Assembly (NCBI GenBank): GCA_021780615.1
Contig: JAJXYJ010000021.1
Span: 3,819-67,818, forward strand
Length of the DNA: 64,000 nt
Reading direction: 5' to 3'
Source of the DNA: a bacterium
Lineage (GTDB): Bacteria > Patescibacteriota > Minisyncoccia > UBA6257 > JAGOQP01
The notes beneath the pieces were generated by a model that did no database searches, was not told where the DNA came from, and saw only the letters and a list, made by a program, of their open reading frames with translations. A program made the translations under genes and the position numbers. Positions 2-52,321 of this stretch are shown here, one piece after another; the stretch's first letter is position 1, and the number at the start of each line of letters is the position of its first letter.

Positions 2-772
2 ATTTTCCGCACGCGCGAATTTGAGCAGATGGAAATAGAATACTTTATCAAGAAGGATAACTGGCAGGAGCAGTTTGAAGGGTGGCTTTCGGAAATGAAA
101 AAATGGATGGCTTTCATCGGACTTCCCGAAGACCGGATTCATTATCTTGAAGTTCCCGACGGCGAGCGTGCGCATTATTCCCAAAGAACGGTGGATATTG
201 AATTTGATTTTCCCTTCGGTAAAAAAGAATTATACGGATTAGCGTATCGCGGCAACTTTGATCTTCAGAGTCATCAGGATGCGAGCGGGCAAAGCATGGA
301 ATACTTTGATGAGGAAACAAAAGAAAAATTCATTCCGCATGTTATAGAGCCGAGTTTGGGTGTTGAGCGGACGGTACTGGCATTATTGACGGGGGCGTAT
401 CGCGAAGATGAGCAAAACGGCGAGGTGCGTGCATATCTCGATTTAAACATGCAGGTGGCGCCCTATAAGGCGGCGGTATTTCCTTTATTGGCCAATAAGC
501 CGGATCTGGTTACCAAAGCACAGGAGGTGCGCAAGGCAATACAGGGTGCGGGTATGACATTTTTGCCGGTGGCGTTTGATAAAGGGGGTAATATCGGCAA
601 GCGGTATCGCAAGCAGGATGAAATTGGCACGCCGTATTGCTTTACCGTTGATTTTCAAACATTGGAAGATGACACGATAACGGTTCGCGAACGAAACTCC
701 GCCACACAGGAGCGAATCAAAGTATCCGAAGCAAGAAAGTTTATTGAGGAGAAGATGAGAGGAGACCTATAA
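2..772 (+). CDS. glyQS: Glycine--tRNA ligase (GlyQS-type), C-terminal part. The 5' end is truncated by the window edge.
   Basis: The frame is open from the window start and reads IFRTREFEQMEIEYF. It carries HYSQRTVDIEFDFPFG and VIEPSLGVERTVLALL, which are characteristic of class II GlyRS anticodon-binding and catalytic regions. Confidence 0.8.
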   Translation: MFRTREFEQMEIEYFIKKDNWQEQFEGWLSEMKKWMAFIGLPEDRIHYLEVPDGERAHYSQRTVDIEFDFPFGKKELYGLAYRGNFDLQSHQDASGQSMEYFDEETKEKFIPHVIEPSLGVERTVLALLTGAYREDEQNGEVRAYLDLNMQVAPYKAAVFPLLANKPDLVTKAQEVRKAIQGAGMTFLPVAFDKGGNIGKRYRKQDEIGTPYCFTVDFQTLEDDTITVRERNSATQERIKVSEARKFIEEKMRGDL

Positions 773-779
773 TTTATAA

Positions 780-930
780 TTTACGATTTACAATTTTTCC
801 GCCCAGGCGGACCCCTCCCGCTTCGCCGAAGCTTCAGCGAGGCGAGTCGGAGCAATCAATTTTCCAATTACTTAATTTCAAAATTCAGAAATTTATTGAT
901 CATTGGAAATTGATAATTAAAATTTTTATA
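780..930. repeat. AT-rich aaattg/caattt-type intergenic repeat with a GC-rich hairpin core (about 797..860). It is the reverse-orientation copy of the motif seen at 34760..34827 and inside the 23S intron.
   Basis: The reverse complement reads aaaattgattgc...gggaggggtccgcctgggcggaaaaattgtaaatt. This parallels gattgcccggagggtccgccctgttcgacagggcggaaaaattgtaaattgaaaatt at 34768. Confidence 0.5.
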
Positions 931-932
931 CC

Positions 933-2210
933 ATGCATCACGTCCATCAAAAAGAATATAAAAACGGATTGCGAGTATTGGTTATTCCGCTTCCTGATGC
1001 GCTTTCAGTGACCACTGCGGTGTTCGTTGAAGCGGGAACGGCCTACGAGCAAAAACATAATAACGGCATCTCTCATTTTTTGGAGCATATGTGTTTTAAG
1101 GGGACTCCGCGTCGTCCACTTCCCATTGATGTTACTGCCGCATTAGAAGGTATGGGAGCTTCATATAATGCGTTTACGAGTCGAGACATGACCGGATACC
1201 ATGTAAAAGTTGCTCCGAAATATGCGGCAAGGGCATTTGATATTATTGCGGATATCTATCTGCATGCAATGGTGCCAGAGCAAGAAATTGAAAAGGAAAA
1301 AGGGGTTATTATTGAAGAAATACGAATGTATGAAGACGAACCTCGCGCTAAGGTAAGTGAAACGCTTGAGTCATTGTTGTATGGCGATCAACCTGCCGGA
1401 TGGCACATTGCAGGAACTCCTGATACGGTGAGGGCCACCACCCGCGAAGCATTTATAAAGTATCGAGATACGCATTATGTCGCCTCAAAAACTATTGTCG
1501 TGATTGCCGGTGCCGTTGACGTGCGGACTGCTCAGCAATGGATAGAAAAATATTTTACAAATCTTTCCCGAGGAAAACGTCAAAAAAATGAGGTAGGAAG
1601 CTATAAACACACCAAACCTTCTGCGCGAGCAATTCATCGTGCATTGGATCAGACACATTTTGCTCTGGGCTTCCATACCGTTCCTTTAGCTGACAAGAGG
1701 CGATTTGCGCTTTCGCTTTTGGCAAAGGTGTTAGGATCTGGTATGAGTTCGCGATTATTTCAGAAGGTGCGGGAAGAAATGGGTGCTGCATACTACATTG
1801 GAGCGGCAAACAATTTTTTTAAGACGCATGGATATCTTGAAGTGTATGGGGGATTGAATCATGAAAAGGTGCCCGTGGTGCTCAGGGCGGTGGCCAATGA
1901 GTTACGGCGTATGAAAGAAACGTTGGTGCCGGACAATGAATTAAAACGGGTAAAGGACTATACTGCCGGAAAGTTTTTACTTTCATTGGAAACATCCGAT
2001 GATTTAGCTTTTTCATATGGCCAAGATCTTATTGAAACAGGAAAAGTGGAAACCCCCGCACAAGCCATTGCTCGTATGCGCGCGGTAACCGCGACAGACA
2101 TTCGTCGCGTGGCGCAAGAATTTTTAACTCCCCAGCGAATGAATCTCACCTTCATCGGTCCCTATCAGAAAACCGATGAGGAGAAGTTTTTAAAGATGCT
2201 TACTATCTAA
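933..2210 (+). CDS. M16 family zinc peptidase (insulinase-like)
   Basis: The inverted zinc-binding motif HFLEHM is near the N-terminus. The 425-aa length and overall pattern fit PqqL/M16 peptidases. Confidence 0.8.
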   Translation: MHHVHQKEYKNGLRVLVIPLPDALSVTTAVFVEAGTAYEQKHNNGISHFLEHMCFKGTPRRPLPIDVTAALEGMGASYNAFTSRDMTGYHVKVAPKYAARAFDIIADIYLHAMVPEQEIEKEKGVIIEEIRMYEDEPRAKVSETLESLLYGDQPAGWHIAGTPDTVRATTREAFIKYRDTHYVASKTIVVIAGAVDVRTAQQWIEKYFTNLSRGKRQKNEVGSYKHTKPSARAIHRALDQTHFALGFHTVPLADKRRFALSLLAKVLGSGMSSRLFQKVREEMGAAYYIGAANNFFKTHGYLEVYGGLNHEKVPVVLRAVANELRRMKETLVPDNELKRVKDYTAGKFLLSLETSDDLAFSYGQDLIETGKVETPAQAIARMRAVTATDIRRVAQEFLTPQRMNLTFIGPYQKTDEEKFLKMLTI

Positions 2211-16120: not shown

Positions 16121-16288
16121 CACCAGGCGCAATTTTCAATTTACAATTTTCAATTTACAATCAATTTTTAATTATTTAATTTTTTTAGAATTAATCGAAA
16201 GAGGAAGGTGTGTGCCAAAGGGTGAGGAACTAAAAAACAAAAATTATTCTTCCTTACTACATACTACCAGCCCCTTACTACTGCTGTC

Positions 16289-27262: not shown

Positions 27263-28948
27263 ATGCCCGTAGGATCTTCTCAACAACAGGATTTACATGA
27301 TCAACTCGTCAAAATGAAGCGCGATGCCGAAGAACGCGATGCGCAGCGGCGGGCGCAAGGGCATGGGCACGTGTATCTGCCTCCCGAAAAGGTGTCGGTG
27401 AGCCTTGATGCATTAGGCTTGCTTGATGAGCACACAGCTCGGGAAGGGCATTGTGCATTGATTGCCATTAAAGATAAAAAGGTGGCGCTCGTTGCCTACG
27501 ATGAACAATATTCAAAAACAAAAGAAGTTATCGCACACCTGGAAAAAGATGGGTACACATTGGTTATCTATATTGTCTCGTTGAGTTCTTTGGAGTATGC
27601 ATTAGGATTTTATCGGTTTGTTGCCGCAAGCCGGACCGCTATCAGTGGATCGGTACGAGTGGGGATGGAAGATCATGATGTGACTACCGTTGAACATCTT
27701 GACTCACTTCCCAAGGTGTCTGATGCCATACGAGCAAACAGTGATGCGGGAAAAATTTCCCAATTGATGGAAACTATTCTTATGGGAGCGATTGCCAACC
27801 GCGCCTCAGATATTCACATTGAACCAACGCAAAAAGGAGCAAAAGTTCGCTATCGCATTGATGGACTTTTAAATGATGCCTATAACGGTTTGTCGTTGGC
27901 ATTATATCGTCCGGTTATTTCACGCATCAAACTCCTTTCTAACCTCAAAATTAATATTCGCGACGAAGCACAAGATGGCAGATTTACCATCAATCTTTTA
28001 AAAAAGAATATTGAAGTTCGTGTCGCCATTGCGCCATCCGAATATGGCGAAGTAGCAGTGATGCGTATTCTGGACCCCGATGCTATTTCTTTGCAACTTT
28101 CTGATTTGGGTATTCGCGCCGATGATTTGGTTATTATTCAAGATCAACTCAAGCGCCCCAATGGCATGGCGCTCAATACCGGACCTACTGGATCGGGAAA
28201 GACCACGACACTCTATGCATTCCTCAAACATCGACTCACCTCTGATGTGAAAATCATCACCATTGAAGATCCAATTGAATACCACCTCGACGGTATTGAG
28301 CAGACGCAGGTAGATAACGCCGCAAACTATACATTTGCGTTGGGCCTGCGTTCACTGATGCGGCAAGATCCTGATATTATTTTAGTGGGAGAAATTCGCG
28401 ACAAAGAAACGGCAGAAATCGCCGTGCAGGCGGCACTGACCGGGCACTTGGTATTTTCCACCGTGCATGCTAACGAAGCGGCAGGAGGTATTGCACGCTT
28501 GCTGGATTTGGGGGTAAAAGCAAACAGTCTTGCACCGGCACTCAATCTGCTTATTGCACAGCGGCTCGTGCGACGATTATGTCCGCATTGTAAGGTGGCA
28601 CACGATGATCCTGATACAAATAAAAAATTGCAGGATTTTATTGAGCGTTTGCCTAACCGCGTTGATAAAAAAGCATACGCAGAACATATAACAGTCTTTG
28701 AGCCGAAAGGGTGTGAACAGTGCAACGGCACTGGCTATCGAGGCCGCGTGGGAGTCTATGAGCTTTTAGTGGTTACCCCCACCATTCAAGAATTAATATC
28801 TAAAAATGCAGGACAGATAGAAATTTTAGCTGAGGTGGAAAAAGGAGATTTTGTCTCCATGCAGGATGACGGTATATTAAAAATCGCATCGGGTATGACA
28901 ACGTTTGAGGAAGTGGAGGAAACGACGGGGAAAATTATGTGGAGATGA
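27263..28948 (+). CDS. pilB: Type IV pilus/type II secretion assembly ATPase (PilB/GspE family)
   Basis: The Walker A motif GPTGSGKTTT is present, with a tetracysteine motif (CPHC...CEQC) and an N-terminal GSPII-like domain. Confidence 0.85.
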   Translation: MPVGSSQQQDLHDQLVKMKRDAEERDAQRRAQGHGHVYLPPEKVSVSLDALGLLDEHTAREGHCALIAIKDKKVALVAYDEQYSKTKEVIAHLEKDGYTLVIYIVSLSSLEYALGFYRFVAASRTAISGSVRVGMEDHDVTTVEHLDSLPKVSDAIRANSDAGKISQLMETILMGAIANRASDIHIEPTQKGAKVRYRIDGLLNDAYNGLSLALYRPVISRIKLLSNLKINIRDEAQDGRFTINLLKKNIEVRVAIAPSEYGEVAVMRILDPDAISLQLSDLGIRADDLVIIQDQLKRPNGMALNTGPTGSGKTTTLYAFLKHRLTSDVKIITIEDPIEYHLDGIEQTQVDNAANYTFALGLRSLMRQDPDIILVGEIRDKETAEIAVQAALTGHLVFSTVHANEAAGGIARLLDLGVKANSLAPALNLLIAQRLVRRLCPHCKVAHDDPDTNKKLQDFIERLPNRVDKKAYAEHITVFEPKGCEQCNGTGYRGRVGVYELLVVTPTIQELISKNAGQIEILAEVEKGDFVSMQDDGILKIASGMTTFEEVEETTGKIMWR

Positions 28949-29027
28949 TTTTACTAATGATCAATTTTCAGTTTTCAATTGATTAATTTTAAAATTTTAA
29001 ATTAAGATTTGATTTCAAATTTTCACC

Positions 29028-30071
29028 ATGTCCGAGTCTTTTCTCAAACACCAAGATAGTCTTATCGCCACAGGCAAGGAGCTTGCTTATGGGGAAATCT
29101 CGCCGCAGGAGGCGCAGGAGATTGAAGTACTGCAGATGTATAAGGCGCAGATCATGGACGAATTGCATGATGATTTAGCCGCCATTGATGCGGGTGAGGG
29201 TACTATCCGTGGGCAAGGGCGCATCAATCGCGATGCGATATACGACGCCAAGCATGATTCTTTTTTTGTTGATTGCGAGGGGAAGTTGGGAATGGCGACA
29301 CTGGGGGACCTTATCGCCGATGTGGCGCTGGGATGTGAGTACTCCCTGTCTCTTCATGCGGTTCCTCGCGAAAAGGCGAAGTTGTATGCCGTTGAGCGAT
29401 CTAAAACGCATTTGAATCAACTGCTGAATCGCCAATTAGCGTTGCAGGAATATGATGTGGCGATGCAAGAAGAACATGAAACGCGAGCAAAACATTTTGC
29501 TCAGGCACAGGAGGAATTGAACGCAAAAGAAAAAGGCACAGAAGCGCACGTGGGGAAATTATTTGAACAGGACATCATTCATCTGCTCAAAGAGGTGCAG
29601 TATGATCTTTCCCATATGGGCATCTCGGTGCAGGAGGCAAATATTGTGCAAGACATGGATGAAAAAATTGATTTTGTGGTGCAGGTTGAAGACAGACATC
29701 GCGGAGTAGGAGTGCGGGAAACTACCGCTGAACCAAAAACGCAATCTCTTTTTGGTATACAGTTTACGATCAATGCACAGGAAGATGTACGGCAGAAAAA
29801 GGAACGGCAAATTAAGCAAAGCAAAGAACATGGCCTTAAAAGCAAAGTGGATGATATTCTTTTGGTGACAGTGCCGATTGGCTGTGGAGAAATAAAGGCG
29901 GCACATGCCCAGTGGTACGCGCAGGGATGTCCTCCTGGTGGTCCCAGTAAACTCTATGCCGCGCAGGTGAAAGTGGGTCTTCTTGAAAAAATTATGGAAA
30001 AAATGGGAGCGAAGGGTACCATGGAAGAAAAGAAGGGGAAGATGGAGGAATGCTTCAACGCGAAACACTAA
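29028..30071 (+). CDS. Hypothetical protein, 347 aa
   Basis: No recognisable motif was found. It follows pilB after an aattttcaatt-type repeat. Confidence 0.5.
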   Translation: MSESFLKHQDSLIATGKELAYGEISPQEAQEIEVLQMYKAQIMDELHDDLAAIDAGEGTIRGQGRINRDAIYDAKHDSFFVDCEGKLGMATLGDLIADVALGCEYSLSLHAVPREKAKLYAVERSKTHLNQLLNRQLALQEYDVAMQEEHETRAKHFAQAQEELNAKEKGTEAHVGKLFEQDIIHLLKEVQYDLSHMGISVQEANIVQDMDEKIDFVVQVEDRHRGVGVRETTAEPKTQSLFGIQFTINAQEDVRQKKERQIKQSKEHGLKSKVDDILLVTVPIGCGEIKAAHAQWYAQGCPPGGPSKLYAAQVKVGLLEKIMEKMGAKGTMEEKKGKMEECFNAKH

Positions 30072-34675: not shown

Positions 34676-34827
34676 ACCCGAAGCGGGAATTTTCATTTTT
34701 CAGTTTTCAATGATCAATGAATTTTTAAATTTTAAAATTGATTAATTGTAAAATTGATTGCCCGGAGGGTCCGCCCTGTTCGACAGGGCGGAAAAATTGT
34801 AAATTGAAAATTGATAATTACATTCAT

Positions 34828-35433
34828 ATGTCTTTATTCATCTCCGAACTTCTTCCTAATCCTACCGGCAAAGATACGGCGGGGGAATGGATTGAGCTAT
34901 GCAATACCGATACTGCGCCAGCGTCTCTTGTTGGAAAAAAGTTGTCCGATGCATCGGGAAAGACGTATGCATTTGGCGACGAATCTTTGGCGCCCCATGC
35001 TTGTACTGCATATCCTTATACTCAAACGAAAATAACGTTAAATAATAGCGGTGATACTATTGTGCTTGCCGATGCGCAGGGTGCTCCTATTGATACGATG
35101 CAGTATGCCGAATCGATGGGCGACGATATTGCCGTGGCGCGAGATCAGGCAATGCATACGGTACTTACCAGCAACCCAACGCCGGGAAAAGAAAATATTA
35201 TTGTTGCTCCTGTGCCCAATACCAGAAACACCACAGGGGGTTGGGATGTCGGATATAACACACAGACAACGTACGAAACTGCGACAACAAGCGATGATGC
35301 GGCCAATGATCAGTCGACACTATCAGATACATCCATTGCTGATGTTATGGGTGCCGGAGCGCTCATTGCATTGTGCGCGACAATATCTTTCTGGTATTTT
35401 TTTAAGAAATTAAAGAATACACCTTCCTCATAA
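34828..35433 (+). CDS. Lamin tail domain (LTD) protein with a C-terminal TM anchor
   Basis: ISELLPNPTGKDTAGEWIELCN is followed by a ...GDTIVLADAQGAPIDTMQY pattern and a C-terminal hydrophobic segment. An ATG at 34828 is used. Confidence 0.7.
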   Translation: MSLFISELLPNPTGKDTAGEWIELCNTDTAPASLVGKKLSDASGKTYAFGDESLAPHACTAYPYTQTKITLNNSGDTIVLADAQGAPIDTMQYAESMGDDIAVARDQAMHTVLTSNPTPGKENIIVAPVPNTRNTTGGWDVGYNTQTTYETATTSDDAANDQSTLSDTSIADVMGAGALIALCATISFWYFFKKLKNTPSS

Positions 35434-35434
35434 T

Positions 35435-37102
35435 ATGACCTCCCGTCGCCTATACACCATTCTCATTATTGCCGTTTTGACGACGGTATTTTTATATGGA
35501 CTACACAGCATCGCTGATTTTGATACGGGATATCATCTGCAAACCGGGCACTACATTGTCACCCATGGTACGGTACCATTGTATGATATTTTTTCTTTAC
35601 AGGGAGTGGGGATGCGATGGATTGCGCATTACTGGCTTTCGGATGTTTTCTTTTTTCTCGTCTATGCGCTGAGCGGCTATGGAGGGCTCATTGTCTTGGT
35701 GGGAGCAATGGCGGCACTGACATGGTGGATGGTCATGCGTACTGCATACCAATACACGGGAAAAAGTTTTCTGGTGCCACTGTTGCTTTTACTCTACACC
35801 TATCTCACATACGAATTGTGGGTAGTTCGTCCGCAGATATTTACCTATGCCGCGACTGCGCTGGTGATATATCTTTTGGAGCGATGGCGGCGAACTGAAA
35901 ACAAAAAAATTCTTGTCGGCGTTATTGCGCTTATGGTGGTGTGGGCAAATCTTCATGCGGGAGTCATTCTCGGTATCGCTATTGTGGGATTGTACGGTAT
36001 CGCGTATGCGTATCATCGTCGTGCGCAGATACGGGACGCTATTATGCCGCTTGGGTTATTTGTTGCCGCCATTGCAGTGACACTCCTTAATCCGAATGGG
36101 TATGCGACGCTATGGTATGGACAGATCATAGAAAATTCCATTCAAACGGTGGGAACATTGGAGTGGAAATCACTTTTGTATTTTCTTCCCGATACCATTG
36201 AATCCAAAATATTTTTGGCCCTTATGGTTGTCGTCGCGGCGCATGTGGGGTGGGTTGTTTTCGGGCGCATCCGCCGTACGCGAGCTGTTTCTCAGGAGGA
36301 TATTGTGTCGTTGGGGTTGTTGGCGGGAGCATGCGCATTGCCGCTTATGTCTATTCGGCATGTGGGGCTGTTTCTTATTATGACATTTCCTCTTTTTGTC
36401 ATGAGTGTGCAAACACTGTATGCGCATCGCGTATCATTACACGTACGAAAAACTTTTTTGTTGGGGGCCATGGGGCTAGTGGGAATTTTTTGCATTGGGG
36501 GACTGGTGCATGTACTGGGATTGCAGGAAATAAATGATCACATGCTTCCGGTGGGTGCCGTGCAGTTTATACAGGATCACCACATTGCCGGTCCGACGTT
36601 TAATAATATGGAAATGGGAGGGTATTTGATTTGGACATTGTGGCCTCAACAGAAAGTATTGTTTGACGGCAGAAGCGAGATATATGCCGGTGCGGCGAAT
36701 GACAACTATGTTTCAATATTTTTAGGATCAGCCGGATGGCAGAAAGCATGGGATGCATATCATCCGAATAATGTATTGTTGGCATATCGGGATACCAATG
36801 GTGTTCCTGCGCCGATTGTGGGCAATCTTATCGCGCGCTTGCAGAGCATGGGATATGACCTGGTGTACTGGGACGATGCAGCAGTTCTATTGCTCAAAGA
36901 CACGCCGGAAAATAAATCTATTATTGATGCATACATGTATCACGACATTGGTCCTTTTATTAATCCCGCTTCTATTCCGGCAGGGGAGGTAAAAAATGCG
37001 ATGACAGAAGTACACCGCGCCCTTGATGCGGCATCCGATTCCATAGAGGTACAAAACTTTGCGACACTGCTGTTGCAACGCATAAAAAATAATTATCAAT
37101 GA
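35435..37102 (+). CDS. Large polytopic membrane protein, possibly a GT-C-type glycosyltransferase
   Basis: It has about 12 TM helices followed by a soluble C-terminal domain. Its start is 2 nt after the LTD gene stop. Function is inferred only from topology. Confidence 0.45.
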   Translation: MTSRRLYTILIIAVLTTVFLYGLHSIADFDTGYHLQTGHYIVTHGTVPLYDIFSLQGVGMRWIAHYWLSDVFFFLVYALSGYGGLIVLVGAMAALTWWMVMRTAYQYTGKSFLVPLLLLLYTYLTYELWVVRPQIFTYAATALVIYLLERWRRTENKKILVGVIALMVVWANLHAGVILGIAIVGLYGIAYAYHRRAQIRDAIMPLGLFVAAIAVTLLNPNGYATLWYGQIIENSIQTVGTLEWKSLLYFLPDTIESKIFLALMVVVAAHVGWVVFGRIRRTRAVSQEDIVSLGLLAGACALPLMSIRHVGLFLIMTFPLFVMSVQTLYAHRVSLHVRKTFLLGAMGLVGIFCIGGLVHVLGLQEINDHMLPVGAVQFIQDHHIAGPTFNNMEMGGYLIWTLWPQQKVLFDGRSEIYAGAANDNYVSIFLGSAGWQKAWDAYHPNNVLLAYRDTNGVPAPIVGNLIARLQSMGYDLVYWDDAAVLLLKDTPENKSIIDAYMYHDIGPFINPASIPAGEVKNAMTEVHRALDAASDSIEVQNFATLLLQRIKNNYQ

Positions 37103-37240
37103 CCAATTTCCAATGATCAATAAATTATTCAGTTTAATAATTTTATAATTTAAAAATTGATTGAAAATTGTAAATTGAAAACTGAAAATTTGCGGTTGCC
37201 GCGTTATCCCCACCTTATACCCAAACACGCCTTGTGAAGC

Positions 37241-37269: not shown

Positions 37270-37848
37270 CACCCCCATGGTGCTTTATATACAAAAGATA
37301 CGCGGGTGAAACGGTGCCGGCTTTATGTTGTCACACCTCATCCGCCGCGCGCGGATTTTTTATGCCACGACAGTCTTTTGAGAAAGTGCTCGTCCTTCAA
37401 AAACATAGGGGATTTAAGAAAGCGTCGCTGACTGATCCCATATCAGAACAATTGAGCAATGTAAACTCAATGTAGGTATGCTTTTTGCAGGACATAACAC
37501 TTCTGTAAAAAGTAGAGAAATGCATTTTCATCCTGCGTATGAACAATACAAAAGGATATGATCAAAAAATGAGCGTTTACTCAAGGGCGTATGGTGGATG
37601 CCTTGACACTGCATGGCGATGAAGGACGTAGCGTAGCTGCGAAAAGTCTCGGGGAGGTGCGTAGCAACCTGTGATCCGGGAATATCCGAATGGGGCAACC
37701 CAGTTGCGTAAACCGCAACTATCTCAACACATAAGATGTTGAGGAGCGAACCCGCTGAAGTGAAACATCCCAGTAAGCGGAGGAAAATAGAACGAATGTT
37801 ATTCCCCTAGTAGCGGCGAGCGAAAAGGGAATGAGCCCAAACCTAGAC

Positions 37849-37995
37849 GCATCTCACCAAGGTAAGATGCTTGGGAATTATCAATTTCCAATTTCCAATT
37901 TTCAATCAATTTTCTAATTTTAAAATTTCTAAATTTATTGATCATTGATAATTGATCATTGAACATTTTCTAAGCACCTCGCTTTCGTGAGGTGC
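37849..37995 (+). other. 23S intervening sequence 1. Its ends are complementary and its body is AT-rich.
   Basis: It begins gcatctcaccaagg.agatgcttggg, has an aatttccaatt-repeat body and ends gtgaggtgc. The ends pair as gcatctcac with gtgaggtgc. Confidence 0.55.
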
Positions 37996-38258
37996 GACTG
38001 GGGGTTGTAAGATATGTGCGCTTCTTTATATTTCGCCAAGTACTTGGCATCTCAAGTATTGGGCGATGTATGAAGTTAAGGAAGAGTTACAAATTATTTT
38101 GCTAGCAGAACCTTGTGGAACCGAGGACCGTAGAGGGCGAACGTCCCGTATGCGAAAGCAAAATAACTCTTTAGCATGTAATCTTGAGTACCTCGAAAAA
38201 TGAATGTTTCGAGGGAATCATCCCGCACTATCGGGAAAGGCTAAATACGTGCAGTGAT

Positions 38259-38295
<37 letters not shown>

Positions 38296-39693
38296 CAGGC
38301 CGGCGAGGCCGATGAAATAGAACCTGAAACCATATGCCTACAAGGAACGGGAGCTCTAACTCCGATTTATCGGAGGGAGTGACCGTGTGCCTATTGAAGA
38401 ATGAGCCAACGAGTTTTTGTGTATCGCTGTCTAAGTTCCACGGAACGGAGGCAAAGCGAAAGCGAGTCTTAAAAGGGCGAAATAAAAAGCGGTACGCATA
38501 AGACCCGAAGCCAGGTGAGCTTGCCATGAGCAGGGTGAAGTCTCGAGAAATCGAGATGGAGGCCCGAACCGGTTGGTTGTGCAAAACCTTCGGATGACTT
38601 GTGGTAGGGAGTGAAAAGCTAATCGAACCTGGTAATAGCTGGTTCTCTCCGAAATAGTTTTAGGACTAGCGTCCCGGAAAAACGCTACAGGGGTAGAGCG
38701 ACTGGTAGAGAAGTAAAGGGGGAAACCTCGCCTTCTCTGTCAAACTCCGAATACTGTAGTGAACGCCGGGGCAGTCAGAATGTGGGGGCTAAGCTCCATG
38801 TTCGCGAGGGGAAGAGCCCAGACCGTCAATTAAGGTCCCTAAATCTATGCTCAGTGTAAAAAGTAGTGATTTGCCTCAGACAGGTAGGAGGTTGGCTTAG
38901 AGGTAGCCATCCTTTAAAGAGTGTGTAACAACCCACTACTAGATGGCAGGTTGCGCTGAAAATTTACCGGGGCTAAGCATAGTACCGAAATTACGGATTT
39001 CCTTTATTATTTATAATAAAGGGAGTGGTAGGAGAGCATTCCGTATGCGCTGAAGCCGGACCCGTGAGGGCCTGTGGAGCGTACGGAAGGGAGAATGTTG
39101 GTATGAGTAACCGCAATCCCGATGAGAATTCGGGACCCCGAAAATCCAAGGTTTCCTCCGCAATGGAAGTCAGCGGAGGGTTAGGCGGTCCTAAGGCAAT
39201 GGCGAAAGCCGCAGCTGATGGACAGCAGGTTAATATTCCTGCCCGCCTGTACGGTCCGATGGAGGGACGATGTGTAGTATATAGAGTGTCTCAGTGGTTT
39301 GGCATCCTTAACTGAGGATCTCCGGTAGGCAAATCCGCCGGGGTGCTTTTAATGGCAAATCTAAGGAAAGAGGTGATGTCCGCCTTTGGCGGGTAAAGTT
39401 TATAAAGCACACATCCAAGAAAATCTTCTAAGGATAACCGTATAGGCTCCGTACCGTAAACCGACACTGGTGGGTGAGGCGAGAAGCCTCAGGGGAACGA
39501 GTGAGTCATCCTCAAGGAACTCGGCAAAAAAGCGACTGTAACTTAGGAATAAAGTCTGCCCTGAGCAATCAGGGCCGCAGCGAAAGTATCTCTGGCGACT
39601 GTTTACTAAAAACACAGCTCCCTGCAAACTCGTAAGAGGAAGTATAGGGGGTGACACCTGACCGATGCGAGAAGGTTAACGGTGGAGGTGTAT

Positions 39694-39867
39694 GCATCTC
39701 ACCAAGGCGAGATGCTTGGGAAATTTTTAATTTCCAATTTTGTAATTTTTAAATAAATCTTAATTTTTAATGTTTTAAACATTATGATTTTGAATTTATT
39801 TACAAAATTCAAAAATTAAAAATTATAAAATTATCTTGAGCACCCAGCTTTTGTGAGGTGTATATGC
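39694..39867 (+). other. 23S intervening sequence 2, of the same family as IVS 1
   Basis: It has the same 25-nt 5' module, catctcaccaaggcgagatgcttggg, an AT-rich body, and 3' gtgaggtgtatatgc pairing with the 5' end. Confidence 0.55.
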
Positions 39868-40611
39868 TTACTGCCCGAAGCCCTCGTCAATGTCAGCGGT
39901 AACTATAACCGTTCTAAGGTAGCGCATTTCCTTTCCGGGTAAGTTCCGGAGCGCACGAATGGTGTAACGACTGGAGAACTGTCTCGAGGATGAGCTCGGT
40001 GAAAATGCGATTCCCGTGAAGACGCGGGGTACCTGCAGCGGGACGAAAAGACCCCAGGAGCTTTACTGCAGCTTGATATTGGTAGTAGAGTTTGTATGCG
40101 TAGCATAGTGAGGAGGCTTTGAAGTTTGTCTTTCGGGGCAGATGGAGCCGACAGTGAAATACTCATCTTGCGAATTTTACTCTCTAACCTTGCGGGCAAA
40201 AACCGTAGGGGACAGTGTCTGGTGGGCAGTTTTAATGGGGCGTTATCCTCCTAAAAAGTAACGGAGGAGTTTAAAGGTCAACTTAGTCCGGATGGAAATC
40301 GGACTGAAAGTGTAAAGGCAGAAGTTGGCTTAACGGCAAGACGTACGTGTCGCGCCGATGCGAAAGCAGAACTTAGTGACCCGACGGTAATGTTAAACAC
40401 TTTTTTTAAAAGAGTTTGACTCTTCATAGGAAGGCCGGAGACAACGGATAAAAGCTACCCTGGGGATAACAGGCTGGTGAGGTCCAAGAGTCCATATCGA
40501 CGACCTCGCTCGGCACCTCGATGTCGGCTCACCCTAGCGCGGGGCTGGAGAAGGTCCCAAGCGTTTGGCTGTTCGCCAATTAAAAGGGTACGCGAGCTGG
40601 GTTTAGACCGT

Positions 40612-41117
40612 TCAGATGCCAAATATATAGTTTGGCAGATGGACAGTCTAAATCCCATGAGGCGTTATTCTAAATTATTTCAAATTTCAAATCTTTTCGT
40701 TTCAAACTAGATTAAATATAACCAATAGATCACGGCGGTCATACGTAGAAATATGTATGTATCAAGATAGCTTATTTCGGAGAATTCCCACCCGCAGATG
40801 CGGAGGAGGACCCCGAGGGAAACCTGACTATGCAGTGCATGGAATTTTTAATTTTAAATTTTGTAATTTTTATTGAATTTTTAATGTTTTAATTTTAAAT
40901 TTTAAAATTGATTCATTTATAAGTTGATTGCCCTATAGGGGTCCGCTCATAGCGGAAAAATTGGAAATTGTAAATTGAAAATTATCACTTTTGAAAGTGA
41001 TAAAGGTGCCCGTAGAGACTACACGCTATCCATCCGATTCAATAAGCAGGAGTGTATCCTGATCTTGTCGAAGGATGATGTTATAGTCCAATGCGCATCG
41101 TAATATGCGGAATCATG
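40612..41117 (+). mobile_element. ORF-less group I intron in the 23S rRNA at the I-CreI-type site (E. coli about 2593)
   Basis: The exon context is GGGTTTAGACCGT^...^CGTGAGACAGGTTGGTC. The 5' exon ends in U and the intron ends in G. P7-like GACTAC...TAGTCC elements are present. The intron contains an embedded copy of the dispersed repeat. Confidence 0.6.
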
Positions 41118-41529
41118 CGTGAGACAGGTTGGTCTCTATCTGCTGCAGGCGTTGACACTTGAGGGAAGTTGGCCCTAGTACGAGAGGACCGGGCTGAACG
41201 AACCTCTGGTCTACCAGCTTTGGTACCAACTGAAGCGCTGGGTAGCTATGTTCGGAAGGGATAAGCGCTGAAAGCATCTAAGCACGAAGCCCCTCCCAAG
41301 ATAAGGTGTCTTAGGACCCTGGAAGATGACCAGGTTGATAGGCTCTCGGTGTACGCACAGTAATGTGTTTAGCCAAGGAGTACTAATAGTCCATTTGAAC
41401 GCTCTTTTTTGAGCAGGTATCATGTGTTTCTCTACTTTTTAAAGAAGTGTTATTGAGTGTATACAGTGTGCTTAATTGTTTTGATATTATATAGTGTACG
41501 AAGCAAACGAAAGATAAAAAAATACTTTC

Positions 41530-42053: not shown

Positions 42054-42265
42054 TCTATTAACCTCATTGTTTATTTACTCATTTTAATATTCAATATTTA
42101 TTGATATTAGTCAATTACTTATATATCTTCACAATTTCTTTTCCAAAAGGGATTTTTTTTGTATAATGAGGCATACTAATTATCAATTTACGATTTACAA
42201 TTTTCAGCAGATTCCTTTGCTAGGAATATAATCGAATTGTAAAATGTAAAATGTAAATTATTCTT

Positions 42266-43297: not shown

Positions 43298-43366
43298 ACT
43301 CATTTTCGATTCCCGACATCGAAATTCGCGAGTGGTATGAAAAAAAGAGATGGTAGAATTCTCCGC

Positions 43367-43404
43367 CCCTTTCTTAAAGAAATTTGAGAAAGGGGCTTTT
43401 TTAT
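43367..43404 (+). terminator. Rho-independent terminator
   Basis: cccctttcttaaagaaatttgagaaaggggctttttt forms a hairpin with a T-run. Confidence 0.6.
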
Positions 43405-43425
43405 TGTACAATTGTCATATAGTTC

Positions 43426-43460
43426 GTTACTTGATTACTGATTACTGATTACTGATTACT
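43426..43460. repeat. Tandem heptamer (ttactga) x about 4.5
   Basis: The tract reads ttgattactgattactgattactgattact. A related agtaatc motif occurs at 9470..9560. Confidence 0.4.
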
Positions 43461-43478: not shown

Positions 43479-45779
43479 ATGCATTCCGACTTCCTCAAAC
43501 CATACGACCATCTGCAAGAAAAAGACGTATACTCTTCCTGGGAAAAATCGGGCTATTTTTCACCAGAAAAGTTACAGACCTTAAAATCTAAATCCCCAAA
43601 GAAACCTTCTTCCATTGGAAATTGGAAATTGGAAATTGATAATTTTTGTATAGTCATGCCTCCCGCAAACGCCAATGGTTCCCTGCATGTGGGGCATGCG
43701 GTGATGGTGGCAGTAGAAGACCTTATGGTCCGTTACTGGCGGATGAGAGGTAAAAAAACATTGTGGCTGCCGGGTGCCGACCATGCCGGTTTTGAAACAC
43801 AGGTAGTTTTTGAAAAGAAATTAGAAAAAGAAGGCACCAGCCGTTTTGAAATACTCCAAAAGGAACATGGCCGGCAGGAACTCTATAAGCGTATTTGGGA
43901 TTTTACGCAAGAAAATAAATCGCACATGGAGCATCAGGTACGGCAGTTGGGGGCGTCGTGTGATTGGACGCGCGAAACATTTACGCTTGATCCGGCGGTG
44001 GTGAGCACGGTGTATGACACATTCAAAAAACTGTATGATGATGGGTTGGTGTACCGCGCCACGCGCATCGTCAATTGGTGTACCAAACACCAAACATCGC
44101 TTTCCGATTTGGAGGTTGCCTGGGAACAGCGCACCGACAAGTTGTATCTGGTGCAATACAAGCGTGCTGATGGACACGGACATATCACGGTGGCAACCAC
44201 GCGCCCCGAAACAATTCCGGGCGACGTGGCAATTGCCGTGCATCCGGACGATAAGCGATTTGCATCGTGGGTAGGAATGCAGGTTATAAATCCGATTACA
44301 GGCAATGCAATGCCGGTTATTGCCGATAAGGCGGTTGATAAGGATTTTGGCACCGGGGCCTTAAAAATTACACCTGCCCATGACCCGGTTGATTTTGAAG
44401 TGGGACAGCGGCACAAGCTGGAAGCTATAAAAACGATTGATTTTAACGGCAGATTCAACATGCTTGCCGGTCCATTCGCGGGCATGAAAGTTGCTGAAGC
44501 ACGGGAGGAGGCGGTAAAAATACTTGAAAAGAATGGCGCGCTTGAGCGCATGGAAGAGTATACGCACCAGGTGGGGGTTTGTTACAAATGCAAAAACACC
44601 ATTGAGCCCATGATTTTACCGCAATGGTTTATTGACCTAACCAGTCCCGCAGCAAAGAAAAAAATAGTACAGCCGGCAATCAATGCGGTAAAGAAAGGAA
44701 CGATAAAAATATTTCCCGCATTTCAGGAAAAGATATTTTTTCATTGGATGAATAATATCCGCGATTGGAATATTTCCCGGCAAATCGTGTGGGGGATACC
44801 AATTCCGGCTTGGTTTCGGAAAACCAAAGCCGGAATAATTTCCAATGATCAGTTTCCAATTTCCAATAAAGATGCAAAAGAAGAGGTTTATATTGGAAAA
44901 GAAAAGCCCAAAGGAGATGGGTGGATTCAGGAGACTGATGTGTTTGATACGTGGTTTTCATCGGGGCAGTGGCCATTTGCCACACTATTAGCTCAAGATG
45001 CCGCTCATTCAAAATTCGAAACTCAAAATTCGAAATTAAAGAGAAGCGATTTTAAGGAATTTTATCCGACAAGCGTTATGGAAACGGGATATGATATACT
45101 CTTTTTCTGGGTGGCGCGCATGATCATGCTGGGGCTGTATCGCACCGGCACGGTACCATTTAAAACCGTATATCTGCACGGCTTGGTGCGGGACAAGGAT
45201 AAGCAGAAGATGTCCAAATCGAAGGGCAATGTCGTCGATCCGCTGGGCGTAGTGGAGCAATACGGCGCCGATGCGCTGCGCATGGCGCTCATTGTGGGTA
45301 ATTCCGCAGGACAGGACGTGGCATACGACGAAGACAAAGTTCGCGGGTATCGGAATTTTTCAAACAAGCTGTGGAACATCGCCCGGTTTGTCATATCGCA
45401 TGCCGAGAAAGAGAGGGATGTAGAAAAAGTGACACTCACGCCCGAAGACAAAAAACTGCTCCTGCAATGTGCAGTAGTTAAAAAGAAAGTGGCCGTGAAT
45501 ATAGAAAAGTACCGATTTTCTCAGGCTGCCGAAGAGGCATATCATTACGTATGGCACACTTTTGCTGATAAAATTATTGAAAGCAAAAAAGAAATTTTAA
45601 ATAAAGAAGCTCCATCCATCACCGACGTTAAAAAACAGGTATCAGCCCGCCGAGCGCTCTATGAATTGCTTGTGCAATCAATTAGTATGTTGCACCCGTT
45701 TATGCCGTTTGTGACGGAGGGCATTTACCAGCGGCTTCCGGCAAAAGACAAAGATTTTTTGATGATTGAAGAGTGGTAG
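43479..45779 (+). CDS. valS: Valine--tRNA ligase, a short form lacking the C-terminal coiled-coil
   Basis: The HIGH region reads PPANANGSLHVGHA and the KMSKS motif reads KMSKSKGNVVDP. PGADHAGFETQ is typical of ValRS. Confidence 0.9.
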   Translation: MHSDFLKPYDHLQEKDVYSSWEKSGYFSPEKLQTLKSKSPKKPSSIGNWKLEIDNFCIVMPPANANGSLHVGHAVMVAVEDLMVRYWRMRGKKTLWLPGADHAGFETQVVFEKKLEKEGTSRFEILQKEHGRQELYKRIWDFTQENKSHMEHQVRQLGASCDWTRETFTLDPAVVSTVYDTFKKLYDDGLVYRATRIVNWCTKHQTSLSDLEVAWEQRTDKLYLVQYKRADGHGHITVATTRPETIPGDVAIAVHPDDKRFASWVGMQVINPITGNAMPVIADKAVDKDFGTGALKITPAHDPVDFEVGQRHKLEAIKTIDFNGRFNMLAGPFAGMKVAEAREEAVKILEKNGALERMEEYTHQVGVCYKCKNTIEPMILPQWFIDLTSPAAKKKIVQPAINAVKKGTIKIFPAFQEKIFFHWMNNIRDWNISRQIVWGIPIPAWFRKTKAGIISNDQFPISNKDAKEEVYIGKEKPKGDGWIQETDVFDTWFSSGQWPFATLLAQDAAHSKFETQNSKLKRSDFKEFYPTSVMETGYDILFFWVARMIMLGLYRTGTVPFKTVYLHGLVRDKDKQKMSKSKGNVVDPLGVVEQYGADALRMALIVGNSAGQDVAYDEDKVRGYRNFSNKLWNIARFVISHAEKERDVEKVTLTPEDKKLLLQCAVVKKKVAVNIEKYRFSQAAEEAYHYVWHTFADKIIESKKEILNKEAPSITDVKKQVSARRALYELLVQSISMLHPFMPFVTEGIYQRLPAKDKDFLMIEEW

Positions 45780-49809: not shown

Positions 49810-50463
49810 ATGAAAAATCGTAAGCTATCAGTGCATGTAGAACATGAGCTTTTATTAAAGCTTGAATCTGCTGGTTTAAATGATGACTTGGCACAAAGAA
49901 TCATTGAGTCGAAAGGAAACAAAATTGCAAAGCAGATGATTGGAATTATCTTACCAGAATCGGCCACAGATGAACGCTTTGAATTTGTAAAAGAGTTCAA
50001 ATTCACTGTTCCGACTGATTATGACCATGCGACACAGCTGGCAACATTTGCCAAAGCACATAAAAAAGGATTTTATTACTACAACGACGATATTACCGAT
50101 ACCAATTTTGCCAAAGCGACCAATAAACTGGTTCCCGGCAAAACATATACGGTAAAAATCTTCGGCATTAAACAAACATTTCAGTCACAGGACGGCTTGG
50201 ATCTCATTGCTTCACAGAAAGGGATCCTTGCCGGTGCACAGGGTGCAAGCTTAGTATATCAACTTGCAAAAGACGAACTCCCCAAAGGCAAATGGTATAT
50301 ATCATTTGATGAAAAGAATGCCCTTTGGGTCGACTCCGATGGCTTCCACCGCGTTCCGTACGTGGGTCGCAGCTCGGACGGCGGTTTCGGGTTCTACCTC
50401 GGCTACTTCGGGAATGAGTGGGGTTCTGATGACTGTGTCTTGTGTTTCTGCGACTCTGAGTAG
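49810..50463 (+). CDS. DGR target protein, with the variable region at the C-terminus and no signal peptide
   Basis: The last 41 codons correspond to the variable repeat (VR). Confidence 0.75.
   Translation: MKNRKLSVHVEHELLLKLESAGLNDDLAQRIIESKGNKIAKQMIGIILPESATDERFEFVKEFKFTVPTDYDHATQLATFAKAHKKGFYYYNDDITDTNFAKATNKLVPGKTYTVKIFGIKQTFQSQDGLDLIASQKGILAGAQGASLVYQLAKDELPKGKWYISFDEKNALWVDSDGFHRVPYVGRSSDGGFGFYLGYFGNEWGSDDCVLCFCDSE
50334..50456 (+). repeat. DGR variable repeat (VR)
   Basis: It is 123 nt, homologous to the template repeat at 50828..50950, with 18 differences. Sixteen of those fall at positions where the template repeat has A, changed to T or G in the VR. Confidence 0.8.
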
Positions 50464-50514
50464 TACTTTGGATCTTTGGTTCTTAACGATTGCGCTAAGA
50501 CCCTTAGATCCTTT

Positions 50515-50537
50515 TAGCCCTTGCAAAGCAAGGGCTA
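50515..50537 (+). promoter_or_regulatory. GC-rich hairpin downstream of the VR, in the position of the DGR homing hairpin
   Basis: tagcccttgcaaagcaagggcta has a 10-bp stem and a 3-nt loop, about 55 nt after the end of the VR. Confidence 0.5.
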
Positions 50538-50827
50538 AATTTTATATAGTGACTATGGATAGTAGATGAGATCATGCGGCTACTTCCTGCCTGCCGGCAG
50601 GCAGGGCTTCATGACGTCGAATTCTCGTAAAAGATTCTTGTCAGTAGTTCGTCGGATTGTTCGCTTGTAGCGGGTATATCTTACGGGCGTGCACATCCTT
50701 TATACGAAAAAATCACAGAGTCGGTGCGATATATGAGGGAGTACATAAAACTCCGCAAACTATTCAAGAAGTGACCGGCGTTACTTCTGGTGTCAGGGAA
50801 CATACATCGTACGCTAATGGCACGGCA

Positions 50828-50950
50828 CTCCGATGGCAACCACCGCGTTCCGAACGTGAATCACAACTCGGACGGCGACTTCAAGTTCAACCTCGGCAAC
50901 TTCGAGAATGAGTGGAATTCTGATAACTGTGTCTTGTGTTTCTGCTACTC
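50828..50950 (+). repeat. DGR template repeat (TR)
   Basis: In the target frame it carries 8 AAC (Asn) codons plus AAT, AAG and GAG at the positions that vary in the VR. A hairpin with a T-run follows at 50960..50990. Confidence 0.8.
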
Positions 50951-50966
50951 GTCTGATTTCTCCCGT

Positions 50967-51350
50967 TTATTGAGCGGGAGTTTTATTTTCTATCTGTCGC
51001 TTCCATCCTCCTAACATACGTCCTACTTCATCAAGTGATAACATGAGCACGCCGTAATGTTTGTTGTCTAAAATTTCATGTTCCCATGCGATTTGCAAAA
51101 GAAATTTCAATAAATCGCTGTTGGCGATAGACGAGGAGACAAAAGATAGTTTTTCAAGCTTATTTGAAGCGAAACTTGTACGAAATAGGTGTTCAAGAAA
51201 TACTAAAAACACATCATCAATTCGTATCCCTATGGTGTATCGATCAATTCGCTTTACATGTATAAGTATCTCATGCCACACTTTGTAGGTGTTTTTTGCC
51301 TTCATAAGCACAAGCGGTGCTTGTGCGGGGGGGGGGAGTAAAATTTTCAT
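50967..51350 (-). CDS. avd: Avd-like accessory protein (four-helix bundle), start uncertain
   Basis: The C-terminus, SLDEVGRMLGGWKRQIENK, resembles the Avd / 23S rRNA IVS protein family. Possible starts are at 51350 (abutting the reverse transcriptase ATG) or at 51305. Confidence 0.5.
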   Translation of the reverse strand: MKILLPPPAQAPLVLMKAKNTYKVWHEILIHVKRIDRYTIGIRIDDVFLVFLEHLFRTSFASNKLEKLSFVSSSIANSDLLKFLLQIAWEHEILDNKHYGVLMLSLDEVGRMLGGWKRQIENKTPAQ

Positions 51351-52321
51351 ATGTTTAATCAAAAGTATATAAACACTATAACCATAGAAAATATTCTTGC
51401 AACATGGAAGCAGTTTTTGCGCGGGAAAAAACAAAGAAAAGATGTGATGTTATTTCAAAGTAGATTGACTGAAAATATATCAGAGTTATTTTTTGAACTA
51501 CGCAATCAAACGTATGTGCATGGTTCGTATGTGGCGTTTAATGTTTCAGATCCGAAACCGCGCATAATTCATAAAGCTTTGGTGCGAGATAGAGTTATTC
51601 ATCATCTCATATACAAGACGTTGTATTCCTATTTTGACGAACGCTTCATTCACGATTCATATTCATGCAGAAAAGAAAAAGGCACACATCGTGCGCTTGA
51701 TCGGTTTAACACATTCGCTCGTAAAGTGTCTCAAAATTACACACGCACGTGTTATGTACTTAAATGTGATATACGAAAGTTTTTTGCGAACATAGACCAC
51801 GGGGTACTTATACAAATTTTGCAAAGACACATTGCGGACGAGGATATGCTTTGGCTGGTTGGGCGAGTAATACAGAGTTTTTATTCTGGCGCAGAAGGGT
51901 GGGTCTGCCACTTGGTAACCTTACCTCACAATTGCTTGTCAATGTATATATGCATGAATTCGATATGTATATAAAGCAAGGACTGCGAGCAAAATATTAT
52001 ATCCGTTATGCAGATGATTTTGTAATACTTTCTGATAGCAAGACACATCTTGAGGATCTGCTTATAAAAATAGATCTATTTCTTAATCAAGAACTTCATC
52101 TTTCTTTACACAAAGATAAAACATATATTAAAACATATGCGTCCGGTATTGATTTTCTCGGATGGATACATTTTCCTCGGTATAGGCAACTACGCACCAG
52201 TACCAAGCGACGGATTATAGAAAACATGAGATGGTATCCAAAACCGGAAACAATAAATTCATATAGTGGACTTTTGGGGCATGGAAATACATATAAAGTG
52301 CGAAAACAAATAGGACTATGA
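51351..52321 (+). CDS. DGR reverse transcriptase, split into two ORFs by a -1 frameshift near 51890
   Basis: The N-terminal ORF reads ...YVHGSYVAFNVSDPKPRIIHKALVRDRVIHHLIY...FIHDSYSCRKEKGTHRALDR. The second frame reads GLPLGNLTSQLLVNVYMHEFD and YIRYADDFVIL (YxDD). These are the hallmark DGR reverse transcriptase blocks. The frames switch at agaagggtgggtctgcc. Confidence 0.85.

Follow-up and report, generated by a model that had tools for sequence, protein, structure and literature searches.

The subject of this analysis is a 64,000-nucleotide (nt) stretch of bacterial DNA (NCBI GenBank assembly GCA_021780615.1, contig JAJXYJ010000021.1, positions 3,819 to 67,818 of the forward strand), referred to throughout as the window, and in particular its gene for valine--tRNA ligase (ValRS, encoded by valS). 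Three tracts of tandem seven-nucleotide units lie in frame within valS, each of about 4-4.6 units and about 31-35 nt. Two of them (sites 1 and 2) are solo arms, in opposite orientations, of a palindromic element that is dispersed through the window, and the third (site 3) represents a second, separate heptamer family. Arrays of this kind occur at the same ValRS hot spots in relatives and inside the open reading frames (ORFs) of other genes; it is a general pattern, seen in many genes and genomes. The arrays are probably selfish or neutral sequences that are transferred as blocks and filtered by reading frame, stop codons, and loop tolerance.

In-frame heptamer arrays in valS and the palindromic element

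The original prediction that three repeat tracts lie in frame within valS is borne out by Tandem Repeats Finder (TRF) and by translation; the tracts and their peptides were correctly described, although the start given for the first tract was one base off. The core of site 1 (43614-43638) consists of 3.6 ATTGGAA units with 100% matches in TRF and continues to 43644 with an ATAATT end; its peptide is SIGNWKLEIDNF, with IGNWKLEIDN given for 43614-43644. The site 2 repeat is of the AATTTCC type, with a TRF span of 44837-44867. Across the window, a periodicity scan found 15 tracts of period 7 against 0.0 in Markov-1 shuffles, whereas the other periods from 3 to 13 yield 0-3 tracts and period 14 yields 6. 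TRF also locates period-7 arrays throughout the AT-rich spacers, in addition to the three in valS. The heptamer arrays are real and non-random, and their head-to-tail copies exceed chance, as in heptanucleotide long simple sequence repeats (LSSRs).

The window ValRS is identical to protein P0001, has thousands of ValRS homologues, and matches the T. thermophilus enzyme (1GAX) at an E value of 2.8e-166. Named homologues are labelled Paceibacterota, Patescibacteria, or Parcubacteria, and the source of the window is a Paceibacteria-like genome of the Patescibacteria. An AlphaFold2 model of the protein has a mean pLDDT of 82, and pLDDT falls below 50 in four segments: residues 34-53, 450-466, and 507-518, which are sites 1, 2, and 3, and the KMSKS loop. 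Aligning 30 orthologues shows that all three tracts coincide with the principal indel hot spots, and model and alignment together indicate that the tract loops are disordered and hypervariable. Compared with 1GAX, site 1 swaps an equal-length linker before strand beta1, site 2 stands for the CxxC...CxxC zinc-knuckle segment at equal length but with the cysteines lost, and site 3 is the only net insertion (+13 amino acids). The earlier description of the tracts as surface-loop insertions is right in spirit only, because two of the three are length-neutral replacements; what stands is their position in lineage-variable, disordered loops of an intact ValRS. The orthologue alignment likewise places the segments at lineage-variable hot spots, but these are not private to this lineage, since relatives share the sites.

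The palindromic element is about 100 nt long (alignment A5) and consists of a left arm of (CAATTTN)3-4, a centre AAATTTTAAAATT, and a right arm of (NAAATTG)3-4 ending in TTGATAATT. At least eight copies are present in the 64 kb, in intergenic DNA and in insertions of the 23S rRNA gene (Table 1), and pairs of copies match in inverted orientation across 79-84 nt at 74-81%. An nhmmer profile built from nine copies, with valS left out, recovers the non-valS copies at E values of 1e-7 to 1e-20, and full copies fold as long hairpins (z about -4.3 to -4.8). Every location at which a dispersed intergenic repeat family had been predicted proved to be a copy of this one alignable element. The order in the window is stop codon, left arm, centre, right arm, start codon, and right arms or arrays stop 7-25 nt short of the ATGs at 933, 29028, 34828, 42266, and 43479. 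The same element, in identical layout, is carried by L032, a locus whose ValRS is only 49% identical to that of the window.

Matched against the profile, site 1 (43611-43646) is recovered as a right arm (E 8.8e-6) and site 2 (44834-44870) as a minus-strand right arm, which is a plus-strand left arm (E 7.5e-5); nhmmer found no significant similarity between the profile and site 3 (E 9.8). Five exact copies of AAATTGATAATT are present in the window, four of them at element ends and the fifth in valS site 1, and CAATGATCA, expected 1.26 times, is found 9 times, chiefly in elements. Site 1 is also 97% complementary across 31 nt to the arm at 37876-37906 of a 23S intervening sequence (IVS). The assignment of sites 1 and 2 to element arms follows from these profile matches and common motifs. 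The prediction that all three valS tracts are of the element's flavour thus holds for sites 1 and 2 and fails for site 3.

Arrays in relatives and across the Patescibacteria

For comparison, valS DNA was taken from eight orthologues (L001-L006, L207, and L208, the last two viewed at sites 1 and 2 only). Heptamer arrays, some of them perfect, stand at the same hot spots in six of the eight (L001-L006). Perfect (CAATTTC)4.6 arrays occur in L002, L003, and L004, and an (AGGAGAA)n array occurs in L003. At site 1, four species have arrays in register, of four units each, but with differing units (ATTGGAA, ACTCAAA, ATTTAAA). Site 2 of the window is orthologous to perfect 32-nt arrays of L002 and L003; at site 3, L001 has a near-perfect (ATTCGAA)4.4 array and L006 an (AAAATCA)n array, both in register, and L019 has (AAATCCG/AAATTCG)n near that position (valS nt 1506-1536). 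In-register arrays with different units are thus found at valS sites in relatives down to about 64-68% protein identity, and the valS arrays are not a recent, private invasion. Of the predicted "repeat invasion of an essential gene", the repeat DNA in tolerant loops remains; its recent and private character does not, for the phenomenon is Patescibacteria-wide and involves many essential genes.

The valS genes of L002 and L003 are 75% identical in nucleotides and 61% identical at synonymous third positions, yet their site 2 arrays are the same perfect 32 nt (P about 1e-4). L207 and L208 are nearer to L002 than the window is, yet both are empty at site 2. The identical array in one pair and the empty site in the other suggest that the arrays are homogenised or repeatedly inserted. 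Array pairs within one mismatch of each other make up 33% within a locus and 9% between loci, the units of one lineage being more alike than orthologous units are. A scan for amino-acid periodicity of 7 was too insensitive for arrays shorter than 11 residues, and a dictionary of heptamer-encodable 7-mers was used instead: stretches of 7 or more residues that a perfect heptamer array could encode exactly occur in 20 of 120 ValRS cluster representatives and in none of 120 shuffled proteins, and the real stretches cluster at five sites. At hot spots in P0005, P0006, P0026, P0037, and P0002 (alignment A1), peptides such as RINADKDARIDTD, TQINTDETQINTD, and RGLDAD resemble products of the GC-rich ACGCGGA(T/C)-type family of the window recG gene, not of AT-rich heptamers.

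Sites 1 and 2 of the window are mutually complementary over 34 nt (79%), and in L002 a site 1 ATTGGAA array similarly faces site 2 CAATTTC arrays. Long-range pairing of the two sites as a conserved feature was rejected because the units in L001 and L005 are non-complementary. A TGGTTT-loop-AAACCA sequence lies just upstream of site 2 in the window and in L002, L003, and L004.

Beyond these orthologues, 80 valS loci of named Patescibacteria (928 kb) yield 83 tracts of period 7 against 5-20 for each of the periods 4-12. Period-7 tracts number 21 per 100 kb in DNA outside ORFs, compared with 11.2 in valS and 5.5 in other ORFs. The perfect 32-mer (CAATTTC)4CAAT was found in at least 120 metagenome stretches; among the matches listed, 61 of the 98 arrays with sufficient context are internal to long ORFs. 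These ORF arrays are read in both orientations and in three frames, as ISNFQFPISN, QFPISNFQFPI, and NFQFPISNFQ, or as KLEIGNWKLEI and its phases. Their hosts include topoisomerase I (TopA), AlaRS, two LeuRS at the same position, ArgRS, UvrD, a P-type ATPase, asparagine synthase (AsnB), a methionyl-tRNA-formyltransferase-like protein, and GT2 glycosyltransferases. Spread by phage is unlikely, because only 4 of 2.9 million viral contigs contain (CAATTTC)4. Literature searches returned no description of heptamer arrays in genes of Patescibacteria or the candidate phyla radiation (CPR). At one Patescibacteria locus (L047, 9696-10004), four (TTTGACA)3.9 arrays recur at an exact spacing of 94 nt and may form a higher-order repeat.

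Origin and persistence of the arrays

Arrays inside coding sequence have a near-fixed length: among the matches listed, 84% of coding-internal arrays measure 32-35 nt, against 35% of non-coding arrays, which spread from 32 to 80 nt. The CAATTTC-side edge is sharp in the same matches, with 62 of 73 arrays beginning exactly there and a preceding G in 49%. Also among the matches listed, a perfect hairpin of 6-11 bp and locus-specific sequence stands on the CAATTTC side in about 18% of metagenome arrays, compared with 3% for the opposite side and 4% for positions chosen at random; it directly abuts the array in 14 of 20 cases, and 22% of left flanks fold at -8 kcal/mol or below, against 6% of random segments. 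Arrays with abutting hairpins come from metagenome loci L087-L206 (for example L104, TopA). In two GT2 homologues (L183, 5880-6010; L151, 1560-1690), the two stems are set apart by a pair of compensatory double changes, all synonymous, and the adjoining array is identical.

The simplest account of the valS tracts is that their peptides are native ValRS sequence and that the DNA looks repetitive only through AT-rich codon usage. The region is indeed rich in AT, and chance does produce short matches in conserved sequence, ACCAAACACCAAACA (44082-44096) being an example; this account is nevertheless refuted by the shuffles, which give no period-7 tracts against the 15 observed, by profile E values of 1e-5 to 1e-4 for valS tracts, by orthologue DNA, and by the shuffled proteins, and its probability is negligible. 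Orthologues that share the peptides do not lack repeat-like DNA but hold repeats that are even more perfect, and plain AT-rich composition does not produce one alignable element of about 100 nt. More substantial is the possibility that these are ordinary long simple sequence repeats, arising and maintained locally by replication slippage of 7 nt, a slippage size that many bacteria favour, without transfer between loci, and alike only through AT-rich composition and mutational bias. Heptanucleotide repeats are described as the most over-represented long repeat class in many bacteria (Mrazek 2007, as summarised in PMC4679880 and PMC4692102), non-coding metagenome arrays vary roughly in unit steps between 32 and 80 nt, and the units at one valS site differ between lineages. 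Local slippage is nonetheless unlikely, given that the non-periodic element motifs AAATTGATAATT and CAATGATCA are common to valS tracts and distant copies, that the profile matches valS, that identical 32-nt arrays stand at hundreds of unrelated loci and genes, and that the left boundary is sharp. Single-unit steps would frameshift essential genes, and yet coding-internal arrays have about 4.6 units; the CAATGATCA variant at several loci is partial evidence of copying.

[quoted passage not shown] Its small, multi-copy, palindromic architecture agrees with that type; hairpin-forming palindromic doublets dispersed in extragenic space and rRNA have the layout that defines REPINs (PMC3116915), the element recurs in the distant genome L032, and a perfect hairpin abuts one end in about 1 in 5-6 arrays among the matches listed. 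Against it, a Pfam scan of the roughly 50 window ORFs found no transposase or RAYT, only housekeeping genes and a diversity-generating retroelement (DGR) reverse transcriptase, the latter without link to the arrays. The suggested check for target-site duplications came out negative: inspection of the sequences found no direct repeats flanking the valS tracts or the full copies, though the ends are AT-rich and fuzzy, and very short ones are possible. Metagenome array flanks were summarised as per-position base frequencies only. The array-adjoining hairpins, unlike REP hairpins, are locus-specific in sequence, coding sequences hold no full element, and the in-register arrays at orthologous valS positions speak against repeated truncation of larger insertions. 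Because valS holds only lone arms of about 33 nt, target-site duplications are lacking, and the window ORFs scanned include neither a transposase nor a RAYT, membership in the MITE or REP class is not established, and the definition of a MITE is not matched, the arrays moreover being old; an origin of this kind is rather unlikely.

Selection could instead maintain functional cis-elements in valS, whether sites for a heptad-reading RNA- or DNA-binding protein, signals in RNA structure or processing, or an internal promoter. The fixed layout from stop codon to start codon in the window and in L032, the perfection of arrays while flanks diverge, the compensatory synonymous double change that keeps an abutting hairpin, the complementarity of sites 1 and 2 in the window and L002, and the post-transcriptional regulation that MacGregor proposed for TAACTGA arrays upstream of start codons (PMC4679880) all agree with this. 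Right arms also give sigma-70-like matches, the valS match at 43615-43643 included. Conversely, in the closest relative, L001 (90% amino acid identity), the units of site 1 are not complementary to those of site 2, the site 2 array is wholly missing in the close relatives L207 and L208, and units vary freely between lineages. Promoter-like matches are frequent in AT-rich repeats (41 found against 24 expected), and the ATG of Met60 is not evidence of a start because Met60 lies in the universally conserved MPPPN strand. Conserved cis-function in valS is accordingly quite unlikely.

For the preferred explanation, that of block-transferred selfish or neutral arrays, we infer block transfer, neutrality of the peptides, and a homogenising process. 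Ready-made repeat blocks of about 33 nt would enter genes through an insertion-type event or through ectopic conversion from other copies, not through unit-by-unit slippage in place; entry as blocks is favoured because 7-nt steps toward 4.6 units would frameshift an essential gene. A block would persist if its total length keeps the reading frame, if its unit is free of stop codons on the strand that is read, if its peptide falls in a disordered, length-tolerant surface loop, and if the loop length remains about native. Because ValRS has only a handful of such loops, the same sites would be occupied repeatedly across the Patescibacteria, with each lineage displaying its own current unit and continuing homogenisation or re-insertion keeping the arrays perfect. 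The peptides IGNWKLEI, ISNxQFPISN, and SKFETQNSKL are most likely passive flexible linkers.

Several points weigh against this explanation. The 32-35 nt length mode is partly imposed by the 32-nt query, and in unselected data, where arrays are few, 3 of 13 are exactly 32 nt. No whole palindromic element was found in valS or in any coding sequence, and the negative searches for target-site duplications and for a transposase or RAYT count here as well. The compensatory changes in the GT2 hairpin hint at selection on structure, and thus at some function, and the neutrality of the ValRS loops is assumed. The in-register arrays of four species at site 1 could equally reflect vertical inheritance and concerted evolution after a single old entry.

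A rather improbable alternative is an active "array-writing" process, as yet undescribed, by which about 33 nt of the heptamer current in a lineage would be placed as a block at a break. It could be hairpin- or fold-back-primed templated synthesis or HUH-type single-strand transposition, and it would often make an inverted duplication of the flanking 6-11 nt. If true, array-writing at a few tolerant sites would explain the perfect arrays in diverged genes, their patchy presence, and the differing units per site, together with the sharp boundary, near-fixed coding length, locus-specific hairpins, and heptamer-built 23S insertions. Through it, the essential proteins of reduced genomes would systematically acquire new disordered loops.

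Known repeat systems and further features of the window

The Rickettsia palindromic elements (RPEs) are dispersed, in frame, in unrelated and often essential genes and in RNA genes (Ogata et al. 2000, reviewed in PMC10969869), and their peptide segments are judged there to be compatible with protein fold and function. RPEs resemble the present arrays in being palindromic-repeat DNA in frame at permissive sites (here in valS, TopA, AlaRS, LeuRS, ArgRS, and others). They differ in being whole elements of about 100-150 bp with a conserved peptide, whereas genes here hold only the heptamer arm of about 33 nt, which occurs in both orientations and all three reading frames and frequently takes the place of a variable native segment. 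RPEs also belong to another phylum, and no relationship in sequence is expected.

Heptanucleotide arrays, known but poorly understood, comprise LSSRs, cyanobacterial short tandemly repeated repetitive (STRR) sequences, TAACTGA arrays, and GGGAATC arrays (Mrazek 2007; Mazel 1990; MacGregor 2015, PMC4679880; Rehm 2015, PMC4692102); they are lineage-specific and concentrated just before start or after stop codons, occasionally within ORFs (PMC4679880, PMC4692102). TAACTGA arrays occur in Beggiatoaceae, Cyanobacteria, and Bacteroidetes, with intragenic copies mainly at protein ends (MacGregor 2015, PMC4679880). The arrays of the window are similar in being dispersed, lineage-specific arrays of a few heptamers, some of them close before start codons. 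In contrast to the published arrays, which are overwhelmingly intergenic or ORF-terminal, they occupy rRNA and the internal loops of essential enzymes, form inverted arms of a larger element, and are near-fixed at about 33 nt in coding sequence. Their units (CAATTTN, ATTCRAA, TTACTGA) do not match the STRR units CCCCAGT, TTGGTCA, and CAACAGT or TAACTGA.

REPINs are inverted short-repeat doublets that form a hairpin and occur extragenically in many copies (Bertels & Rainey 2011, PMC3116915). The window element is likewise an extragenic inverted doublet with a hairpin, but REPs are imperfect palindromes of about 20 nt with a RAYT, whereas here the arms are tandem heptamers, coding copies exist, and the window has no RAYT. 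The terminal inverted repeats, small size, AT-richness, multiple copies, and lack of coding capacity of MITEs are seen in the intergenic and rRNA copies only. The intragenic tandem repeats of Borgs are perfect, add disordered segments, and evolve fast, with units divisible by three and expansion in place (Schoelmerich et al. 2023, PMC9879509). They share with the present arrays perfect nucleotide repeats in ORFs that add disordered peptide; the unit here is 7 nt and not divisible by three, so that only a whole block keeps the frame. New here is a non-triplet repeat, present as a block of about 33 nt, that recurs across a phylum, both in rRNA and in loops internal to essential enzymes.

The tiny genomes of Patescibacteria have few spare genes, yet the essential enzymes ValRS, LeuRS, AlaRS, ArgRS, and topoisomerase I, as well as 23S rRNA, are recurrent hosts of the same 7-nt repeat DNA. 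The arrays explain many odd low-complexity CPR peptides (ISNFQFPISN, KLEIGNWKLEI, SKIKNQ, NSKFEIRNSK) and length variation in alignments; such repeat-coded segments mislead alignment and phylogeny, and they provide a natural map of insertion-tolerant loops. They pose the mechanistic question of how a non-triplet repeat enters in frame as a block and stays perfect. If an enzyme is behind the entry of arrays, it would represent a new kind of genome-editing activity.

Table 1. Positions in the window of valS, its heptamer arrays, and the copies of the palindromic element
Feature	Positions	Strand	Remarks
valS (valine--tRNA ligase), 766 aa	43479..45779	+	ORF and translation; HIGH (as HVGH) and KMSKS motifs intact
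Site 1	43614..43644	+	(ATTGGAA)3.6, then terminal motif AAATTGATAATT; right-arm copy; just before strand beta1 and HIGH motif
Site 2	44836..44870	+	degenerate (CAATTTC)4.4 with genome-specific variant unit CAATGATCA; left-arm copy; ISNDQFPISNK
Site 3	45007..45037	+	(ATTCRAA)4.4, alternatively 14-mer TCAAAATTCGAAAC x1.9; SKFETQNSKLK; separate heptamer family
(TTACTGA)4.7 array	43427..43460	+	TRF 96%; presumed valS 5' leader, 18 nt before ATG
Full element with nested GC hairpin (34760-34790)	34676..34830	+	between P-type ATPase gene and next gene; E 3.7e-16; RNA fold z -4.8
Full element with nested GC hairpin (797-850), intergenic	765..935	-	79 nt, 81% complementary to 34688-34766; fold z -4.4
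Element without GC hairpin ("empty site" version), upstream of 23S rRNA	37080..37200	+	nhmmer E 3.3e-18
Element as stem of first 23S rRNA IVS	37870..37975	.	E 3.6e-20; one long hairpin, z -4.7
Element with nested GC hairpin (40930-40954), inside third 23S insertion	40838..40995	+	nhmmer E 3.2e-7
Element with different central hairpin, directly upstream of gene starting at 42266	42170..42265	-	E 6.6e-13; fold z -4.3
Partial element (one arm and centre), intergenic	16125..16200	-	nhmmer E 3.1e-10
Partial or degenerate element filling 80-nt spacer between two genes	28945..29030	-	nhmmer E 4.1e-9

A larger module in three copies, built around a GC hairpin (34760, 797-850, 40930), had been predicted and is real, with the hairpin at an identical point: GC-rich hairpins of 25-54 nt are nested in three element copies exactly between TTGATTG and AAAATTG, and 37152-37190 is the unfilled version of this insertion point. 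The three hairpins differ in length and loop and have GGGGTCCGC...GCGG in common. Their reading as terminators was dropped because the T-runs lie on the wrong side. In Nostoc, apparently mobile small dispersed repeats (SDRs) of 21-27 nt are reportedly nested inside tandem heptamer repeats and other elements, as Elhai et al. are said to have described in 2008. The nested GC hairpins look similar, by analogy only, as sequences and phylum differ.

The 23S gene (37571-41406), followed by a 5S gene, lies upstream of valS and contains about 900 nt of insertions. The element forms the stem of the first insertion, and array-rich DNA fills the other two. The first two open with a common module of 46 nt (37849-37894 and 39694-39739, 78% identical), in which heptamer arrays come after a small hairpin GCATCTCACCAAGG..AGATGCTTGGG; this suggests that one element was inserted twice in the rRNA gene. 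The third had been called an intron; it does hold a copy of the element, but it scores 25 bits against the group I intron model, below the gathering score, and its identity as such an intron is weakly supported.

Upstream of valS, a promoter-like site (43384-43412) and a terminator-like site (43365-43396) were noted, and the (TTACTGA)4.7 array lies downstream of the promoter-like site. This array is missing from the upstream sequence of the closest relative, L001, and its unit is one base off the TAACTGA arrays known before start codons in Beggiatoaceae and cyanobacteria. Site 1 itself can be read as a sigma-70-like promoter, TTGGAA-N17-GATAAT (43615-43643), with the in-frame ATG of Met60 12 nt downstream, and matches of the same kind occur in other right arms; the promoter-like reading of site 1 is probably incidental.

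The recG helicase gene (52417-55065, minus strand) is a further case of repeat-associated DNA in frame in a housekeeping gene. It contains an in-frame PD-(D/E)XK domain (PF13366, GxxExxY-like; residues 437-550) between the DEAD and Helicase_C domains. This inserted domain is flanked by inverted GC-rich repeats of 10-11 nt of the ACGCAGAC type (53355-53807), and a second repeat-coded stretch lies at 53002-53126. The DGR occupies 49810-52320, with its variable repeat (50333-50456) at the 3' end of a 217-aa ORF and its template repeat at 50827-50950; nearly all mismatches between the two fall at template adenines. Its reverse transcriptase is split across two overlapping ORFs, 51351-51971 and 51851-52318.

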